Below, in pieces: positions 36,101 through 43,143 of a DNA stretch of 64,000 nt (positions are counted from its first letter, which is position 1; the number at the start of each line of letters is the position of its first letter). The position numbers and the translations under genes are program-made. The DNA is from Candidatus Uhrbacteria bacterium. Its GTDB lineage: Bacteria; Patescibacteriota; Patescibacteriia; UBA9934; GWF2-40-263. Below the pieces are notes generated by a model, which was not told where the DNA came from, did not search any database, and worked only from the letters and a program-made list of their open reading frames with translations. The stretch is taken from contig JAHFIQ010000001.1 of assembly GCA_023246355.1 (NCBI GenBank), positions 350,247 through 414,246 on the forward strand, written 5' to 3'.

Positions 36101-37188
36101 TCCACACTGGAGGTGTCGCAGGAAAAGATATCACCCAAGGTCTGCCACGCGTGGAAGAATTGTTTGAGGCACGCAATCCAAAACAAAAGGCCATCATGAG
36201 TGAGGTGAGTGGAAAAGCAGAAGTGGACACGGCGGCTCGTGAGGTGGTCCAGGCAGGAACTGGCAAACAAATTTACGACACGCGCCCTGGACAGAAAATC
36301 GTGAAGATCACCTATGAGGGCGTGGATGAAGAAGCAATTGCCTACGGCAAGACCGGGGAGCTCATGGTCAAAGATGGAGACTCTGTGAAGGAAGGCGCGG
36401 TGCTTGCCAAAAAATCCAACGGGAAAGAAGTGGTAGCACCAGGCGCGGGTGTGGTTTCCCTGAAAAAGGTTGGTGTCATCACCCTCATTCGTGAGATGAC
36501 CAAGGTGCGCGAGTACATCATCCCACCGGGCTTTACCCTCTACGTGAAAACCGGCGATGAAGTGCAAGCCGGCGACGCGCTCACCGATGGAAATCTCGAT
36601 CTGCAAGTCCTGTTCAAATTCAAAGGCCAGGACGCGGTGCAGAAATATCTCTCAAAAGAAATTCAGTTCATCTATTCTTCCCAAGGTCAGAAGCTCAACA
36701 ACAAGCACATCGAAATTATCATCCGCCAGATGTTCTCGCGTGTGCGTGTGACGGATCCAGGCGACACAGATTTGTTGCCAGGGGAAATTATCGAGAAGGC
36801 TTCGTTTGAAGACGCCAACGACAAACTCGTGAAAGGAGGAAAGAAGGCGCATGCCAAACAGTTGTTCTTGGGCATCACCAAAATTTCCCTCTCAACCGAT
36901 TCATGGCTTTCAAGCGCGTCCTTCCAAGAGACCGCTCGCGTGCTCATCAATGCGGCTGTGACAGGTAAGGTTGATCGCCTTGAGGGGCTGAAAGAGAATG
37001 TGATCATCGGACGACTCATTCCTGCTGGAACCGGATTTGAAGACATGGAATACGAACTCATTGGAGATTTCAAAGCCGCTCGTATGGCACGTGAAGCCAG
37101 CCGCGAAATCGTCGGCGAGATCGACGAAGCGTTCTCGCAAAACAAAGTCGTGGCTGAGGAAGTGAAGGAGATGGCACAGGAAGGGTAG
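33163..37188 (+). CDS. rpoC: RNA polymerase beta' subunit
   Basis: NADFDGD catalytic motif, Zn-binding Cys, 'EPGTQLTMRTFH'. Confidence 0.99.
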   Translation: MFKKQDALKSTDFDSIRLRLASPEVIRSWSFGEVSKPETINYRTQKPEKQGLFAEEIFGPSKDWECYCGKYKKIRYKGIVCDKCGVEVTHSIVRRERMAHIELAAPITHIWFLRGVPSKIGTILDLSIQGLEKVIYFASFLVTDVNEVAKEATIEQVKTERKSKQKMIEGEFVRDTGRLVQKHGEDKKAIEKETKRLEEIRDTKLAELEEDYEIVMEDLKAMKVMSIIPEQTYHEWSLKYGHVFEANIGAEAVKDMLRRVNVEETMKAIEEELKTATKTKRNRLLRRVKLLKAFSINAIKPEWMVLNALPVIPPDLRPMVPLDGGRFATSDLNDLYRRVINRNNRLRRLYELNAPEVISRNEKRMLQEAVDSLIDNSARHSKTVIAATGKKRQLKSLADQLKGKQGRFRQNLLGKRIDYSGRSVIVVGPHLHLDQCGIPKKMALELFKPFVISKLIEREYVHNIRSANRFIESDRPETWDILEEVTKDAFVLLNRAPTLHRLGIQAFRPTLIEGKAIQIHPLVCDAYNADFDGDQMAVHVPLTEEARAEARELMLATKNLLKPSFGGPVATPGKDIAWGIFYLSMEPTPMPESQEGLPTFASETDALYAVQNEKLSLRDWVVVRMDEGHLMITTPGRLLVNAQFPKEVPYMNQTMGKKELAGIVKYYLELHGSEKTAEFLDRLKEIGFKYSTRAGYSWGMGNLPEVPGKPALIEEGDARVREVNDYFDQGLLTGSERHSSIIKVWNEIKDRIAAEAKKALPKDNPAYTMIESGARGSWGQMTQMVGMKGLVANPAGEIIELPVKSSFKEGYDVLEFFISSHGVRKGLTDTALRTANAGYLTRRLVDVAQDVIVRQEDCGDDKGVVLTHKESEEIGEPLIIRILGRYVLSDVKKPGGRKVIVKAGEMITEEEIREIEAAGVPLEEAHVRSVMTCRLRRGVCQKCYGYDLAYNKRVKMGTSVGIMAAQSIGEPGTQLTMRTFHTGGVAGKDITQGLPRVEELFEARNPKQKAIMSEVSGKAEVDTAAREVVQAGTGKQIYDTRPGQKIVKITYEGVDEEAIAYGKTGELMVKDGDSVKEGAVLAKKSNGKEVVAPGAGVVSLKKVGVITLIREMTKVREYIIPPGFTLYVKTGDEVQAGDALTDGNLDLQVLFKFKGQDAVQKYLSKEIQFIYSSQGQKLNNKHIEIIIRQMFSRVRVTDPGDTDLLPGEIIEKASFEDANDKLVKGGKKAHAKQLFLGITKISLSTDSWLSSASFQETARVLINAAVTGKVDRLEGLKENVIIGRLIPAGTGFEDMEYELIGDFKAARMAREASREIVGEIDEAFSQNKVVAEEVKEMAQEG

Positions 37189-37319: not shown

Positions 37320-38456
37320 ATGCCTCCAAAAAAGGCTCAAGTGGACCTGTGGCCAGATGAGCTCAGGTCTGCTCTCTCAGGCATACATGTCGACGACAAT
37401 GGGATTCAACAGAGCTGGGATGCTGTACTTGATCGTCTCCCCACCTTTGAGGAGATCATGCAGGTGACGTTTGCTCCTGAAGGACGCGCCTTGCCGTATG
37501 CTTTTGCATTCATTGCTGAACGTCTGCGGCCCTTTGTTCAGCTCCCCGTGGAGCTGGTCTCACGCAGATCATGGGAGACGGAAGCGCACTCACGCAAGGG
37601 AACGTTTCGTGTCATCTTCAGGTCCAGAGGGGTAGAACTTGCAGCCCCCAGCCAGATCTTCGGAATTGACTGTCAGAAATGTGTCAGCCTTTTGAAGGCT
37701 GCCAGGAAGAGGACAGGTCAAAAAGAGATCCGCGATCCTGACACGGGCTGCACCATCGCAACGCTTGATGCAAGGCACAACACCTTGCAGGTGCATTTCT
37801 GTGAGGTGGCACATCCGACTGAGGATTGGGGTGAGCGCCATCGTGAGATTTTTGCGTCTCTGGTGTGGCGCGTCATTCCCCTCTTACCCGAACCTCTGCT
37901 CACGCCAGAGCTCTGGGTGCAGCAAAACAAGGCATCACGCCGCGAAGCCGTTGAGCGGGTGTACCGTGCCTATCGAGTGCAGGCAAAAACGAGTCAGGAG
38001 GGAGATCTAGATGAACTCACTCGGCTGACCACGTCCTTGGCGGAAGTCGGTGTTGTTTCCAACCTTCAAGCAGAGGTTGCTCAGCTGCAGATCACGGTCC
38101 TTGGACTCACATCGCTTGTGAAGAAGCAGGAAGAAAAAATCAGGTCGGAGCTTGAAGCGCTGTTGAAGCGTTCGGATGTTGCTTCAATTCATCTGTGGGG
38201 ATCAGTGCTCGTGTGTGCTGTGGTGAAACCAGATTCTGCGTGGACGATTGTCGTGAACCGGGCACAGATAGGGGATCCGGTTCGTTGGTACAAGCATGAA
38301 GGGAGTACGCGCCAGGCGTATGCCCCGTCCCAGTACCGAATGCTCATTCCTCTTGTTGAACTGTTGAGCAAGGGGGAGTGGGGCACGGTCATCACAAGCG
38401 CGATTGCCGCAATCAGCACATCCCGCCTTCAACCCATCCACCTGCAAGAGGAGTAG
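37320..38456 (+). CDS. Coiled-coil protein, probable inactive paralog of the E2-like protein at 40256
   Basis: 378 aa, collinear similarity to 40256-41392, lacks the PH...C motif. Confidence 0.55.
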   Translation: MPPKKAQVDLWPDELRSALSGIHVDDNGIQQSWDAVLDRLPTFEEIMQVTFAPEGRALPYAFAFIAERLRPFVQLPVELVSRRSWETEAHSRKGTFRVIFRSRGVELAAPSQIFGIDCQKCVSLLKAARKRTGQKEIRDPDTGCTIATLDARHNTLQVHFCEVAHPTEDWGERHREIFASLVWRVIPLLPEPLLTPELWVQQNKASRREAVERVYRAYRVQAKTSQEGDLDELTRLTTSLAEVGVVSNLQAEVAQLQITVLGLTSLVKKQEEKIRSELEALLKRSDVASIHLWGSVLVCAVVKPDSAWTIVVNRAQIGDPVRWYKHEGSTRQAYAPSQYRMLIPLVELLSKGEWGTVITSAIAAISTSRLQPIHLQEE

Positions 38457-38458
38457 AC

Positions 38459-39193
38459 ATGGTCAAACCCCCCAGAGCACCCATTCCGCTGATGACCAGA
38501 GCTTCGCCATCCACAACAGTGCGCGTGCTCGAACTTCCGCCCACGGTCTACTTCGCCAATCGTGCGATGGAAGACATGCGCATTCTCGTAGCCCTTTGCC
38601 CCGAGGAAGTGGGATGGTTGGGAACGGCCAGAAGGGTCGGCCGAACGTTCTACGTGGATGAGATCTTCTTGCCCAAGCAGCATGCAGGTCCTGCGCATAC
38701 CACCATCACCACCGAGGGACTGAGTCAGCTCATGGATGAGCTCACCCGTGCAGGCCGCGCCAAGCTTTTGGACCGTATGTTTTTCTGGGGTCACTCCCAT
38801 GCCAACATGCCGGCCGATTTCTCGGGCCAAGACGACCTGCAGATGGCCAAGCTCTCGAGGCATTCCCCCTGGTTCATCCGGGCGGTCTTGAACAAGTACG
38901 GAGACATGAAGGTGGATGTGTTCATGCGCGAAGAGGGCATGGCCTACTTGAACGTGCCATGGGTGGTTCACGCCCCTGTTCCCAAACAGCGCCTTGCCTT
39001 TTGGCAGGAGCGTCTGGCTCTGCAAATGCAAAGCCCTCCCAGGCGCAAGCACGGCCAAAAAGGTCTTCCTGCGCACATGGTTGGCAGAGGTGAAGCCGAA
39101 CTGGATTCCCAAGAAGTGTCAGAGGGTCTCGATCCTCCAGATGAAGCGCAGTGGGAAGCTGCGCTCGAACGTCTGGGAAGGGGGGAACCATGA
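38459..39193 (+). CDS. JAB/JAMM (MPN+) metallopeptidase
   Basis: 'EVGWLG' and exact H-x-H-x7-S-x2-D motif (HSHANMPADFSGQD); GAGGAG SD. Confidence 0.88.
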   Translation: MVKPPRAPIPLMTRASPSTTVRVLELPPTVYFANRAMEDMRILVALCPEEVGWLGTARRVGRTFYVDEIFLPKQHAGPAHTTITTEGLSQLMDELTRAGRAKLLDRMFFWGHSHANMPADFSGQDDLQMAKLSRHSPWFIRAVLNKYGDMKVDVFMREEGMAYLNVPWVVHAPVPKQRLAFWQERLALQMQSPPRRKHGQKGLPAHMVGRGEAELDSQEVSEGLDPPDEAQWEAALERLGRGEP

Positions 39194-39885
39194 TCAGCAT
39201 TGCTCGTCATCACACCGTGTTTGATCCCAGGACCTTTGAGGAGAATCGGGTTGACGTGATTGGTGCCGGTGCGCTAGGATCCCGGCTGACCTTGGAACTT
39301 GCCAGGCTCGGGATTCAGGAAATTCATGTCTGGGACTTCGACAAAGTTTCGGACGTGAATCTTGCCAACCAGGCCTATGCCAGGAAGGATGTGGGCATGC
39401 CAAAGGTTCAGGCTCTCGCTCGTTTGGTGCTGGAGCACACCGGTGGTCATGTTGTTGCCCATGAAGAGGCTTGCACGGGAGAATCAGAATTGGGAGAGGT
39501 CGTCTTTCTCATGACTGATTCCCTTGTCTCGCGCCGTGAGGTCTTTGCGGGAGCTCTCAGGTTCAACCTCGTAACCCGGCGCCTCATCGAGGCGCGTCTG
39601 GGAATCGATCAGGGTCGGGTGTATTCACTCGATCCCAACCAGAGTGCCGATGTTGACGCCTACGCGCCGACCTTGAACGGCATCGCCAAGTTGGCGGTCA
39701 ATCCGTGTGGCTCTCCGATTTCCATCGGCGCCACAGCCGGCATGGCCGTCGCTCTTGCTACCTGGATGTTCATCCGATGGTGGGGAAAGGAACAAGATCA
39801 GACATCGACAGATGAACTGGAGAACGAAGTGGTTTTCGCCCTGCACCCTGTGATGGTCATGGGGAGCAGTTTCAACCAAACGTGA
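39190..39885 (+). CDS. ThiF/E1-like adenylyltransferase
   Basis: VIGAGALGS, 'DFDKVSDVNLANQ', 'GMPKV', 'TDS', candidate catalytic Cys in 'NPCG'; ATGA overlap with the JAB stop. Confidence 0.92.
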   Translation: MISIARHHTVFDPRTFEENRVDVIGAGALGSRLTLELARLGIQEIHVWDFDKVSDVNLANQAYARKDVGMPKVQALARLVLEHTGGHVVAHEEACTGESELGEVVFLMTDSLVSRREVFAGALRFNLVTRRLIEARLGIDQGRVYSLDPNQSADVDAYAPTLNGIAKLAVNPCGSPISIGATAGMAVALATWMFIRWWGKEQDQTSTDELENEVVFALHPVMVMGSSFNQT

Positions 39886-39915
39886 GTGGGCGATCACACA
39901 AAGACAGGAGTGGTC

Positions 39916-40185
39916 ATGGCAGGCAAGGATAAGGCGGGAGCGAAGAAGGCAGAAGCGAAGAAGGCGGAAGGCGGCAAGATCAGCCTCCAGGTGTTCCCTG
40001 GCAGGCGTGTGCAAGTGGACATCGAAGAGGGCGTCCCCTTCACCCTGGCCAAGCTGCTGGAACAGGAGGGCTTGGATGCGGCGCAGACGACCGTCAAGGT
40101 CAACGGTGAGGATGTCGCCGATCTCGAGCGTGTGCTCGTAAGCGGCGACAGCGTCGTTCTTCTCGAGAACGTCGAGGGCGGCTAG
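39916..40185 (+). CDS. Ubiquitin-like (beta-grasp) protein with C-terminal Gly-Gly
   Basis: 'TLAKLL...VKVNGE...LVSGDSVVLLENVEGG*'; AGGAG SD. Confidence 0.9.
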   Translation: MAGKDKAGAKKAEAKKAEGGKISLQVFPGRRVQVDIEEGVPFTLAKLLEQEGLDAAQTTVKVNGEDVADLERVLVSGDSVVLLENVEGG

Positions 40186-40198
40186 GTCGCAGGGAACG

Positions 40199-40243
40199 AA
40201 AAACGGCGGGGCGCTTGTGGACGATCCGCGAGCCCCCGTTTTT
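40199..40243 (+). terminator. Hairpin plus T tract between the Ubl and E2-like genes
   Basis: gggg-cgcttgtgga-cga-tccgcgagc-ccccg-ttttt. Confidence 0.55.
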
Positions 40244-40255
40244 ACTTGAGGGAGG

Positions 40256-41392
40256 GTGATGGTCATGAAAATCACGTTTGTCGGAAAGACACGATGGGAA
40301 CGGGCAAGGGAGGAACTCACCTCTAACATCCGGGAACACTTGTTTCCGGTCGTCCATAAGGACGTGGTCGTACATTTCCCCATGGAGGAATCAGAGCCTC
40401 ACGGCATTGAGCCCATGGATGGATTGCTCGAGGCGTCAGGGGCATTTCACTTGTTTCTCTTCGGGAGGTTTCTTCCCGGGTCTCACATTCTGAGCTCTCA
40501 AAGGTGGGGTTCCTACCGTACTGTGCTTGACGGAACACCCGTTGGATTTCCCATCTTCGTGCATGGAAGCCAGACGCCGATCGCTGAGTGGATAGGGAAT
40601 GTTGTCTGCTTGCGACTTCGAATGCAATACAGTGACGACTCACCCTATTCCCTCTGGGGCGAATTCGTTCGCTCTACCGCACAGACTCTGAGGAGTGCAC
40701 AGGGAGCAGATCCATCGCCTGTGGAGGGAGTAGGTTCAATCGCTCAGGCGTTGATGCCTTCTTCTTGGGCAGAGGAATGCAAGAAATGGCAGGCTCAATT
40801 TGACAACAGAGAAGGGAGAAGGGCTGACGCACTTAAACTCTTCCATCGTGCGACCGAAGAGGCCGCGCGTTTCGCTGCTCGAGTGCGTGAACAAACGGAA
40901 CAGGCGTTCGATACAAGTGAGTTCCAGGCCGAACTCGATCGTCTACGGGCGCATCCACTTTTTGATGACGCGTACTTTGTCCGAAACGGAGATCCTTCCG
41001 ACACAGACATTAAGTCTCCCGCGTTTGTGGTGAGGACCAAGGCCGTCGTCGTGAAGGTCAAAGCGCTCAACAGCGACGCCATGGAAGAGCGCCTGATCGG
41101 ACGATTCGAGATTTCCATTCCTCTTGATCCAAACCATGATTGGGGGGACTGCGTGCATTTTTACAACCTCGATCGATTGGTCGCCAATCAGCATGGTCCG
41201 CACATTGATGCAGATGGCTGTCCCTGCTTTGGCACAGGAACGTCGACCGTCGATAGGCTCTATGGGGAGGGACGCATCGCAGAGCTCGTCAAGTTCTGTC
41301 TTCACTACCTCACGCGAGTCAACACGGACGATCAGTGGGGGGAGAATATCCACAAGTGGCCCTTGGTTCAGGAAGCTCATCCTTCAAGCTAA
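40256..41392 (+). CDS. Coiled-coil protein with C-terminal prokaryotic E2-like (UBC-fold) domain
   Basis: 'HGPHIDADGCPCFG' resembles E2 HPN/HPH...G.xCL; followed by 'CLHYLTRVNTDDQWG'; operon context. Confidence 0.75.
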   Translation: MMVMKITFVGKTRWERAREELTSNIREHLFPVVHKDVVVHFPMEESEPHGIEPMDGLLEASGAFHLFLFGRFLPGSHILSSQRWGSYRTVLDGTPVGFPIFVHGSQTPIAEWIGNVVCLRLRMQYSDDSPYSLWGEFVRSTAQTLRSAQGADPSPVEGVGSIAQALMPSSWAEECKKWQAQFDNREGRRADALKLFHRATEEAARFAARVREQTEQAFDTSEFQAELDRLRAHPLFDDAYFVRNGDPSDTDIKSPAFVVRTKAVVVKVKALNSDAMEERLIGRFEISIPLDPNHDWGDCVHFYNLDRLVANQHGPHIDADGCPCFGTGTSTVDRLYGEGRIAELVKFCLHYLTRVNTDDQWGENIHKWPLVQEAHPSS

Positions 41393-41455
41393 CGCACACG
41401 GTCCCAGCGGCCGTGTTTTCTTTTTGGGGTCATTCCATTAAAATAGGGAACAATT

Positions 41456-41938
41456 ATGCACGAAGCTCGCATTATCATGGGATTGGATCCAGGCTATGGA
41501 CGCATGGGGTTTGGGGTCATTGTCGTTGAAGGATCAAACATGGAACTGGTCGACTACGGCGTGATCACCACAACCAGTGGCGATGCGTTTGAAAATCGAT
41601 TGCTCCATATCGGCAATGACCTTCATGATTTATTTGCGCACCACGAGCCTCACGCGGTTGCAATTGAAAAACTTTTTTTTGGAAAAAGTTCTACGACCGC
41701 GATGAACGTGGCCCATGCCCGCGGTGTGGCCCTTCTCATGGCAGCACAATCTGGATGTCCGGTGTTTGAGTTCACACCAGCGCAAGTAAAAAAAGCCATT
41801 ACCGGAGACGGCAAGGCTCCCAAGATGGCCATGCAAAAAATGGTGATGCAACTGCTTGCTCTTCCCAAAATTCCCAAACCCGACGATGCCGCCGACGCGC
41901 TGGCGGTCGCGATCACAGCGAGTACGAAGAGGTGGTAA
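41456..41938 (+). CDS. ruvC: Holliday junction resolvase RuvC
   Basis: 'GLDPGYGRMGFG', 'AIEKLFF', 'PDDAADALAVA'. Confidence 0.96.
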   Translation: MHEARIIMGLDPGYGRMGFGVIVVEGSNMELVDYGVITTTSGDAFENRLLHIGNDLHDLFAHHEPHAVAIEKLFFGKSSTTAMNVAHARGVALLMAAQSGCPVFEFTPAQVKKAITGDGKAPKMAMQKMVMQLLALPKIPKPDDAADALAVAITASTKRW

Positions 41939-42380: not shown

Positions 42381-43143
42381 ATGAGAGCTTCGAGGAAAGC
42401 GTTCCCCAAAGTTGTTCGAAAATGACTCGGTGAAAGTCTGCGAATTCTTTCGATTCAATAATGATAGCCATTTTTTCCTTCCAGGAGGCAACAAGGATTT
42501 TGTTGTTGTAAATGTTGATCTCAGGAGTGAACGTTTCACCTTGGGGAAGAAATCGTGTGGCACGCATTTCAGCTTGATCAAGTTTTGTGCGCTCGATGGA
42601 GACGGCATTTCGTGGAAAAATGGCTCTGATGTACACACCCTTGGCCGCGCGACGTTTGTAGTAGGTTGGAAAGAAGTTTGGTAATGCTTCGTGAACGGTT
42701 TCGACGTTTGCGTAAGCCAGGATTGGTTGCTTAGACGTAAGAGTGTCCTCATAGGCCTCACGCATCCCTTTCTCTCCTTCGTAAAATTGGACTCTCGGCT
42801 TACTTGTAGCCTTGTTTTGAAGTGAGACGAGCTGAGGAATCAGATGTTTGATCTGATTTTTTTGCTTGGTGAGTCGTTCTGTTGTGTTTTCAATCTCACG
42901 ATCAACGTAACTGAGTAGCCGACCAGGATCAAGCGCTCCAAAGTACGTTTGGGATCCTTTTTTGTACTGATTCACCACTCCCTTTTTAAGGAGCAAACCA
43001 AGGATATCGTAAACGGTCGTTCTGTTCACGTCTGCCTTTTTGGCAATTTCTCCCGCTTTTGCGCTCCCAAGTTCCAGGAGGGTCATGTAGATGACCGTTT
43101 CCTTTGATGTGAAGCCAAGTTCTTTGAGGATTTCTTTTAGCAT
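42379..43143 (-). CDS. TrmB-family transcriptional regulator
   Basis: 'LGFTSKE..IY..LLELG...EIAKKA.VNRTTVYDIL..L', 'VQFYEG'. Confidence 0.9.
   Translation of the reverse strand: MLKEILKELGFTSKETVIYMTLLELGSAKAGEIAKKADVNRTTVYDILGLLLKKGVVNQYKKGSQTYFGALDPGRLLSYVDREIENTTERLTKQKNQIKHLIPQLVSLQNKATSKPRVQFYEGEKGMREAYEDTLTSKQPILAYANVETVHEALPNFFPTYYKRRAAKGVYIRAIFPRNAVSIERTKLDQAEMRATRFLPQGETFTPEINIYNNKILVASWKEKMAIIIESKEFADFHRVIFEQLWGTLSSKLS

Follow-up and report, generated by a model that had tools for sequence, protein, structure and literature searches.

A probable catalytically dead paralog accompanies an E2-like protein in a five-gene operon of Candidatus Uhrbacteria

The operon and the relationship between its first and last gene

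The window, a stretch of 64,000 nucleotides from a Candidatus Uhrbacteria bacterium, carries a compact five-gene cluster on the + strand, located between rpoB/rpoC (ending at 37188) and ruvC (41456-41938). The outer genes, here called ORF1 and ORF5 (ORF, open reading frame), enclose genes for a JAB/JAMM peptidase, a small ThiF-type E1 and a ubiquitin-like protein (Ubl). A sequence-only reading of this DNA had suggested that ORF1 is a catalytically dead twin of the E2-like ORF5 protein and that both are joined by coiled coils in the manner of Ubc13-Mms2, with the N-terminal domain possibly selecting substrates. Our profile comparisons support the view that ORF1 and the E2-like ORF5 are paralogs, ORF1 having diverged and lost the catalytic residues. 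The cluster comprises the following features:

37320..38456, + strand: ORF1, the putative catalytically dead paralog, 378 amino acids (aa); N-terminal extension at residues 1-44, N-domain 45-200, coiled coil 201-284, degenerate UBC-like C-domain 285-378
38322..38330, + strand: A335-P336-S337 of ORF1, at the family P-H-(V/I) position; the following x3-G-x2-C loop is deleted
38459..39193, + strand: JAB/JAMM peptidase, 244 aa from an ATG start; listed ORF 38378-39193
39190..39885, + strand: small ThiF-type E1, 231 aa, its ATG overlapping the JAB stop; listed ORF 39151-39885
39886..40185, + strand: Ubl, ThiS-like beta-grasp protein with a Lys/Ala-rich N-terminal tail and the C-terminus ...VEGG-stop
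40265..41392, + strand: ORF5, E2-like protein of the active type, 375 aa when read from the ATG; N-domain 1-145, coiled coil 146-229, UBC-like C-domain 230-375
41195..41239, + strand: catalytic-type loop of ORF5, G311-P-H313-I-D-A-D-G-C-P-C321-F-G-T-G325, with H313 and C321 invariant
41396..41426, + strand: terminator-like hairpin with T-run, directly 3' of ORF5, closing the operon before ruvC (consensus scan only)

The JAB gene most likely starts at the ATG at 38459, 2 bases past the ORF1 stop. Both outer ORFs are 378 aa long as listed, ORF5 being listed from a GTG at 40256; its homologues favour the ATG at 40265 and hence 375 aa. A second terminator-like hairpin with a T-run was found at 40213-40243, between the Ubl gene and ORF5, again as a consensus match only. 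It may be an attenuator that sets the amount of the active E2-like protein relative to the other four products. Such sites were not enriched over shuffled sequences in the promoter and terminator scan.

Direct comparison of ORF1 and ORF5 remained at noise level. The best BLASTP match had an E-value of 3.7 and was not collinear, and hhalign of the two family profiles, each built from four members obtained by word-indexed homologue searches, gave a probability of 0.13% and a score of 20.2, within the range of shuffled profiles. Relying on these comparisons without intermediates, homology would have been wrongly rejected. The ORF1-family profile was also run against 1.84 billion representative proteins, which yielded nine matches at E ≤ 0.001. 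Three of these belong to the ORF1 family itself. Two others are of metagenomic origin and carry no annotation; these proteins, P0010 (486 aa, E 3.1e-6) and P0014 (540 aa, E 6.7e-4), turned out to be intermediates between both families. P0009, P0011, P0012 and P0013, in which short stretches were matched many times, were set aside as spurious; such matches fall in repeat proteins (WD40 in P0012, Cna_B repeats in P0013, low-complexity repeats in P0011).

P0010 aligned collinearly with both proteins, its residues 103-446 covering nearly the whole of ORF5 (22-369; BLASTP E 4e-11) and its residues 12-334 matching ORF1 2-297 (E 2e-4). By hhalign against the combined P0010 and P0014 profile, the ORF1 family reached 97.4% (E 1.1e-11, 263 columns, score 89.8) and the ORF5 family 97.1% (E 6e-11, 328 columns, score 84.4), compared with scores of 19.1 and 17.8 for reversed intermediates and of at most 21.1 and 21.6 for 30 column shuffles. 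Merged profiles gave 97.5% and 97.7%. The similarity predicted for the two profiles thus failed in the pairwise comparison and was recovered through P0010 and P0014, and the five pairs of ORF1 and ORF5 segments quoted in the sequence-only reading are all present and all in register in a 10-sequence MAFFT alignment. As a methodological lesson, the direct profile comparison of ORF1 and ORF5 was a false negative.

When the domains were compared separately, the ORF1 N-domain matched that of P0010 with 93.9% (E 1.5e-7) and the ORF5 C-domain that of P0010 with 96.6% (E 6e-10); the match of the ORF5 N-domain was weaker (37%, E 3.5e-4). N-domain and C-domain profiles showed no similarity to each other (probability below 1%). 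At the level of sequence profiles, the intermediates establish that ORF1 and ORF5 are homologous in the N-domain and the coiled coil, with weaker evidence for the C-domain.

The weaker C-domain match raises the question whether ORF1 shares only the N-domain and the coiled coil with ORF5, its last 95 residues forming an unrelated domain. Tested alone against the two intermediates, the ORF1 C-domain reached only 4.7% (E 0.009, 17 columns), in the correct register. ORF1 lacks three pieces of the family C-domain, namely a beta-hairpin, the H...C loop and the V-N...W stretch before the final Pro, and no confident structure of ORF1 could be obtained, the ESM Atlas model being poor (predicted local distance difference test, pLDDT, 0.48). 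Against a profile of 18 C-domains from outside the ORF1 family, however, the same domain gave 79.8% (E 1.5e-5, 94 columns) and a score of 34.0, whereas 40 shuffles did not exceed 21.2 and the reversed profile scored 12.8. The alignment is collinear and keeps the expected register. Moreover, a dead copy in genome G287 retains the loop and the W-P tail without His or Cys and represents an intermediate stage of the same decay. An unrelated C-domain in ORF1 is therefore improbable.

Catalytic motif and fold of the C-domain

The canonical E2 turn reads H-P-N-(I/V)-x3-G-x-I-C. The family motif P-H-(V/I)-x3-G-x2-C is spaced like this turn, with a His at the position of the E2 Asn. In ORF5, P312-H313-I-x3-G-x2-C321 places a Cys shortly after an HPN-type turn, as is characteristic of E2 enzymes, and H313 and C321 are invariant in 4/4 ORF5 homologues. 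A catalytic-type motif is present in 16 of the 18 C-domains outside the ORF1 family. ORF1 does not have this feature. As had been noticed from the sequence, only ORF5 keeps PH...C; ORF1 carries A-P-S instead, and its Cys loop is deleted.

The A-P-S triplet is invariant in 4/4 ORF1 homologues. Mean pairwise identity within the ORF1 family is 67% in the C-domain, close to the 68% of the ORF5 C-domain, and 39-43% elsewhere in ORF1. Judged by these identities, ORF1 is maintained rather than decaying, with the C-domain as its best conserved part. This conservation, together with the invariant Ser337, could also indicate that ORF1 is not dead and uses another nucleophile, forming an oxyester as do the Bub E2s, which act via a Ubl~serine oxyester according to the relevant passages of that study (10.1101/2024.11.21.623953). 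S337, however, aligns with the family His and not with the Cys, whose loop is deleted, and other dead paralogs have Leu or Asn at this position. Such an activity of ORF1 is thus very improbable.

For the fold of the C-domain we turned to the intermediate P0010. Its AlphaFold2 model, based on a 10-sequence alignment, had a mean pLDDT of 68, and the 10-residue blocks of the C-domain ranged from 61 to 88, mostly above 72. A Foldseek search of this model against the PDB returned a list consisting almost entirely of E2 enzymes (best E 0.025, probability at most 0.97, none below E 0.001). With VIA, residues 304-448 of P0010 were superimposed on E2s over nearly their whole length, the best match being 1q34_A (Z 6.9, root-mean-square deviation 4.0, 113/149 aligned). 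Altogether 189 chains reached Z ≥ 5, including the Knl1 RWD domain (Z 6.8), Ubc13 (Z 6.5) and Ube2V1 (Z 6.1). In a VIA search independent of Foldseek, the top 50 were long-helix matches, and the sole globular matches were again E2 enzymes and the Knl1 RWD domain. In this search, dominated by the long helix, no fold was identified for the N-domain of P0010 (pLDDT 33-82). ESM Atlas matches for ORF5 and ORF1, among them a 378-aa cluster with 287 members, were all below the bar and are regarded as leads only.

The UBC core is built of a helix, an antiparallel sheet, an active-site loop and C-terminal helices, in this order. The model comparisons support a UBC-like fold of the family C-domain, as modelled on P0010. 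Because this fold is predicted for a protein that is constantly accompanied by an E1, a Ubl and a JAB peptidase, we read ORF5 as an E2-type enzyme, and it likely uses C321 as acceptor. By sequence, neither ORF1 nor ORF5 belongs to a family in Pfam, NCBIfam or PADLOC beyond sub-threshold matches at chance level (E 0.019 and 0.059), the weak PADLOC match of ORF1 being to Csx20 (E 0.019). ORF1 matched no Pfam family at E ≤ 1 and so lies outside the eukaryotic clade of ubiquitin E2 variants (UEV) by sequence. It does possess the UEV feature of an E2-homologous domain without the catalytic Cys; that it acts together with an active E2 is a prediction.

The wider family, its dead copies and the predicted dimer

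A 10-sequence profile was searched in a sample of 401 genomes of the class to which the Uhrbacteria genome G001 belongs, and the E2-like family was detected in 11 of them. In a phylum-level sample it occurred in 2/401 genomes, one of which is G001 itself. Viral contigs and phage records contained no relatives, and in a metagenome scan the two short contigs already known were the only ones found. Thirteen loci were readable (the window, L001, L002 and L019-L028). All 13 carry an E2-like gene together with a JAB gene and a small E1 gene, and in at least 11 a beta-grasp gene follows the E1 gene, L020 being unclear. The family proteins consist of one to four N-domains, a long helix and a C-domain, the latter with the motifs N-L-x-R, (A/G/H)-P-H-(V/I)-x3-G-x2-C-(L/F)-G and V-N-x2-D-x2-G-x-I-x2-W-P in this order.

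Dead copies were encountered more than once. In G287 the gene order is that of the window, i.e. dead copy, JAB, E1, Ubl and intact copy (A-P-H-V...C), and the dead copy reads A-P-L-V-D-G-D-G-R-L-L, with neither His nor Cys. In G393 there are three copies in tandem, and in the middle copy His is replaced by Asn and Cys by Tyr. On 6/6 contigs an intact copy lies beside every dead one. The order with the dead gene first and the active gene last is found in G287 and in all four contigs of the window lineage, for the P0002/P0006 contig by shared membership only. A quick maximum-likelihood tree was built from 22 core sequences; on it the dead state requires three changes, and well-supported branches make at least two of them unavoidable.

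The N-domain behaves as a module that can be repeated, each protein having one to four copies, as in a 1281-aa protein of G221. G281 encodes a separate protein that ends in an N-domain and has no C-domain. These arrangements, together with the tandem copies of G393, were read from L020 (5844-12174), L021 (4894-8736), L023 (6006-8279) and L022 (8550-10085). Many N-domains of L019-L026 contain a Cys after a W-G turn and the motif H-x-D-x-C-H after L-Y-I. The respective residues of ORF1 are C118 (37671-37673) and H159-C161-H165 (37794-37814), of which only C118 is invariant in the ORF1 family; ORF5 has none of these Cys and His residues. From their pattern they could form a metal site or a second active site.

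P0010 additionally starts with an extension. Its residues 1-65 (L003 181-375) were modelled by AlphaFold2 as strand-strand-helix-strand-strand, a beta-grasp-like order (block means of pLDDT 68-87). ORF1 keeps a shortened remnant of this extension (P-P...D-L-W-P; window 37320-37451), and ORF5 is without it. The short contigs of P0010 and P0014, which are 37% identical as proteins, share at their very start a translated leader of about 43 residues (L003 44-172 and L004 44-172), and their 5' ends look near-identical. The shared leader could be a common upstream element or an assembly artefact.

The joining of ORF1 and ORF5 by coiled coils, as put forward in the sequence-only reading, was examined by complex prediction with ESMFold2, using alignments built by ourselves, three runs and three controls. 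The ipSAE score was 0.76 in 3/3 runs, and the best of the three controls reached 0.00. The partner had a pLDDT of 76, and at least 68% of the contacts were common to the runs. In the calibration, the mark was reached by 116/157 solved complexes and by 2/215 mismatched pairs, counts that hold only roughly for author-built alignments. The predicted interface is formed by heptad-spaced residues, 156-224 of ORF5 and 204-282 of ORF1, with the tightest pairs between ORF5 220-240 and ORF1 210-219 and 40-43. Residues 290-297, 352 and 354 of the ORF1 C-domain lie at the predicted interface with the start of the ORF5 helix (156-165), and the ORF5 catalytic domain is predicted to contact ORF1 37-46 and 204-220. 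These contact lists imply antiparallel helices, which would hold the two UBC-like domains at opposite ends and out of contact with each other. In line with the coiled-coil proposal, the prediction points to an ORF1-ORF5 coiled-coil heterodimer.

Coiled-coil paralogs could equally homodimerise. ORF1 and ORF5 might then each form a homodimer, and ORF1 might have a separate task, for instance as Ubl receptor, decoy or regulator. Six of the 13 loci (L021, L023-L025, L027 and L028) contain a single family gene, which must function without a paralog and whose product presumably homodimerises. In addition, the complex tool also passes close cousins of a true partner, and the ORF1 and ORF5 families are not sister branches in the tree. 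On the other side stand the heterodimer score, reproduced in every run against controls at zero, the restriction of dead copies to operons that contain an intact copy, and the first-and-last gene order kept in the window lineage and in G287. Separate homodimers are accordingly an unlikely explanation, although one that deserves to be kept in mind.

In our opinion ORF1 is quite probably a diverged paralog of ORF5 with the same layout and without the catalytic His and Cys, most likely serving as a non-catalytic partner that binds ORF5 through the predicted antiparallel coiled coil. Several results weigh against this reading. The failed direct comparison and the faint match of the isolated ORF1 C-domain to the two intermediates belong here; the 79.8% for this domain was reached only with the enlarged profile and is still moderate. 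No match to E2 models or sequences was found for ORF1, ORF5, P0010, P0014 or the isolated C-domains, either in Pfam, NCBIfam and PADLOC (up to E 1-10) or among PDB sequences (up to E 10). The fold evidence comes from P0010 and not from ORF1 or ORF5, VIA Z-scores of 6-7 are middling on the scale of the tool, and the AlphaFold2 model of ORF5 (four sequences, pLDDT 50) was not used for the fold search. The complex score expresses model confidence only. Finally, the ORF1 and ORF5 families are not sisters in the tree, and their stems are very long (3.19 and 2.65 changes per column).

A possible course of the reaction can be outlined. The E1, with its conserved Cys173, would adenylate the Ubl at its GG end. 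The Ubl would then pass to Cys321 in the UBC-like domain of ORF5 and from there to a target, and the JAB peptidase would remove or process it. In the predicted dimer each C-domain packs on the start of the partner's helix, and the N-terminal region of ORF1, situated beside the catalytic domain of ORF5, could help in target choice or in steering the Ubl. The thioester chemistry, the direction of transfer and the role of ORF1 in this scheme are inferred.

Other operon proteins, gene neighbourhood and comparison with known systems

The JAB protein matched Prok-JAB with E 6.8e-4, below the Pfam cut-off, and has the motif E50, H112-x-H114-x7-S122-x2-D125, the residues of which are kept in at least 12 of the 13 operon JABs. 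The E1 matched ThiF (E 2.3e-16), PADLOC 'E1-E2' models (E 1.9e-13) and a model of SAMP-activating E1 (E 9.2e-8), and its single conserved Cys, C173, is present in 13/13 operon E1s. The Ubl matched ThiS (E 9.9e-5). The Ubls of the window, L001 and L002 all terminate in GG, so that the window Ubl has its GG ready-made.

The Ubls of the other relatives end in GN, GNC, GNNA, GQ or NG and not in GG, so that JAB would have to mature the Ubl there. Their genes lie at L019 7766-8071, L021 10515-10976, L024 6777-7097, L025 7843-8097, L026 1937-2200, L028 5860-6102 and L004 1705-1998. In L022 (5019-5672), L023 (3820-4452) and L027 (4321-5373) the beta-grasp part forms the start of a protein of 211-351 aa.

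As the best curated matches of E1 and Ubl are ThiF and ThiS models, the operon could serve as a sulfur carrier like the ThiS/ThiF or MoaD/MoeB systems, in which the Cys of ORF5 would carry a persulfide and no protein would be conjugated. The matches are far below the cut-offs of the biosynthetic equivalogs, however (e.g. 65.5 bits versus 159), the E1/Ubl pair occurs together with a JAMM peptidase and a UBC-like protein in 13/13 loci, and no thiamine or molybdopterin genes were seen among the 45 flanking proteins scanned. Sulfur transfer is hence a highly improbable function of this operon.

The genes flanking the operon are housekeeping genes, and no defence genes were seen among them. The downstream gene encodes RuvC (E 2.8e-47). 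The nearest relatives bear the name Candidatus Uhrbacteria, and two genomes so named (L001 and L002) have the same five genes together with ruvC. Not far from the operon, the window also has a gene for a TrmB-family transcription regulator (42382-43143, - strand, E 1.4e-15), as does the distant relative L027 (9522-10319, + strand, E 2.2e-14).

DNA repair or replication genes adjoin the operon in 9/13 loci: ruvC in three related genomes, uvrB or uvrA in three, and further a gene of the AP-endonuclease-2 family, dnaE and ssb (window 41456-41938, L001 12107-12601, L002 4394-4876, L019 5068-5940, L020 692-1204, L021 1171-4680, L022 1-4765, L023 1579-3645 and L026 6091-8751). This is a plain count over the 13 loci. 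Taken together with the analogy to Ubc13-Mms2, these neighbours may hint at a role of the operon in DNA damage. Given its repeated position beside ruvC, uvrA/uvrB and an AP endonuclease gene, the system may serve a DNA-damage response.

On the whole we regard the locus as a new type of operon with a new family of E2-like proteins, in which a pseudo-E2 partner recurs. A full-text literature search, with subscription journals outside its coverage, found no description of this family or of a bacterial E2/pseudo-E2 pair. More speculatively, one may envisage a ubiquitination-like system restricted to the Candidate Phyla Radiation (CPR), whose E2 has its own target-recognition domains and whose antiparallel coiled-coil dimer repeatedly evolved into an obligate active/pseudo-E2 heterodimer, an independent counterpart of Ubc13-Mms2 that perhaps acts in the DNA-damage response; this broader picture is tentative.

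In eukaryotes, pairing an active with an inactive enzyme is a classic way to build chains and to position substrates, and bacterial Ubl-conjugation operons (CBASS type II, Bil, Bub) were only recently shown to be real enzyme cascades. The present family is found in very small CPR genomes, surrounded by genes for housekeeping and DNA repair, has no E3 and combines its E2 with one to four copies of an uncharacterised domain. Active/inactive pairing apparently arose repeatedly, at least two to three times, within this one small bacterial family, and the simple five-gene system could be reconstituted to ask what a pseudo-E2 adds.

Bil operons, as described in the passages of the study concerned with them, encode the Ubl BilA, the E2 BilB, the JAB protein BilC and the E1 BilD; an E3 is absent, and targets are proposed to be recognised by the E2 itself (10.1101/2024.11.21.623953). 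The window operon has the same four functions and likewise no E3. Following the same passages, the Bil E1 consists of an inactive and an active adenylation domain in tandem and a mobile Cys domain (10.1101/2024.11.21.623953), whereas the window E1 is a single ThiF domain of 231 aa and falls outside this definition. The sole PADLOC matches of the window operon are those of the E1 to 'E1-E2' models and the weak ORF1 match to Csx20 (E 0.019). Bil operons also differ in having no second, dead E2, and the window operon in being flanked by housekeeping and not by defence genes.

Bub operons (6E/DUF6527) resemble the window as diverged bacterial Ubl-conjugation operons with a Cys-less E2-like protein. 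In the account given in the passages on Bub, these E2-like proteins were once predicted to be inactive and act via a Ser oxyester, and the operons contain a DUF6527 protease as well as genes in which Ubl and E2 or JAB and E1 are fused (10.1101/2024.11.21.623953). No Pfam match to DUF6527 and no such fusions were found among the five window operon proteins. Judging from these passages, the Cys-less E2 is the only E2 of Bub, and both Bub E1 and E2 are without a catalytic Cys; the window family, in contrast, always pairs a dead copy with an intact, Cys-bearing one and conserves C321 of ORF5 as well as C173 of the E1. RWD-like inactive E2 domains were described in 6e operons, with no mention of an active/inactive paralog pair in the passages that deal with them (Iyer et al. 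2006, PMC1779556).

Among eukaryotic proteins, the kinetochore RWD proteins (the Knl1 C-terminus and CENP-O/P) share with the family a coiled coil followed by a non-catalytic UBC-like (RWD) domain. Kinetochore RWD proteins pair through their coiled coil and RWD parts. Knl1 matched the P0010 model over helix and domain (Z 6.8, 128 aligned), and CENP-O matched the Atlas model of ORF1 at TM 0.32, below the bar. These proteins nevertheless have no sequence relation to the family and no link to Ubl enzymes. The archaeal SAMP/UbaA/HvJAMM1 system is similar in its small ThiF-type E1, its ThiS/MoaD-like Ubl ending in GG and its JAMM peptidase. This system is not known to use any E2, whereas an E2-like gene is present in 13/13 loci of the window family.

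A further parallel is that with Ubc13-Mms2/Uev1, in which an active E2-type protein is likewise combined with a homologous partner without catalytic Cys; Ube2V1 (Z 6.1) and Ubc13 (Z 6.5) were among the structural matches of the family C-domain in the P0010 model. ORF1 nevertheless has no sequence membership in the UEV family, and both ORF1 and ORF5 add an N-domain and a coiled coil of about 80 residues. In Mms2-Ubc13 the UBC domains are in direct contact, whereas the predicted ORF1-ORF5 dimer is held by antiparallel helices, with the UBC-like domains apart. The comparison with Ubc13-Mms2 made in the sequence-only reading is therefore borne out by a dead paralog beside an active copy and departs from the eukaryotic pair in the geometry predicted for the two UBC-like domains.

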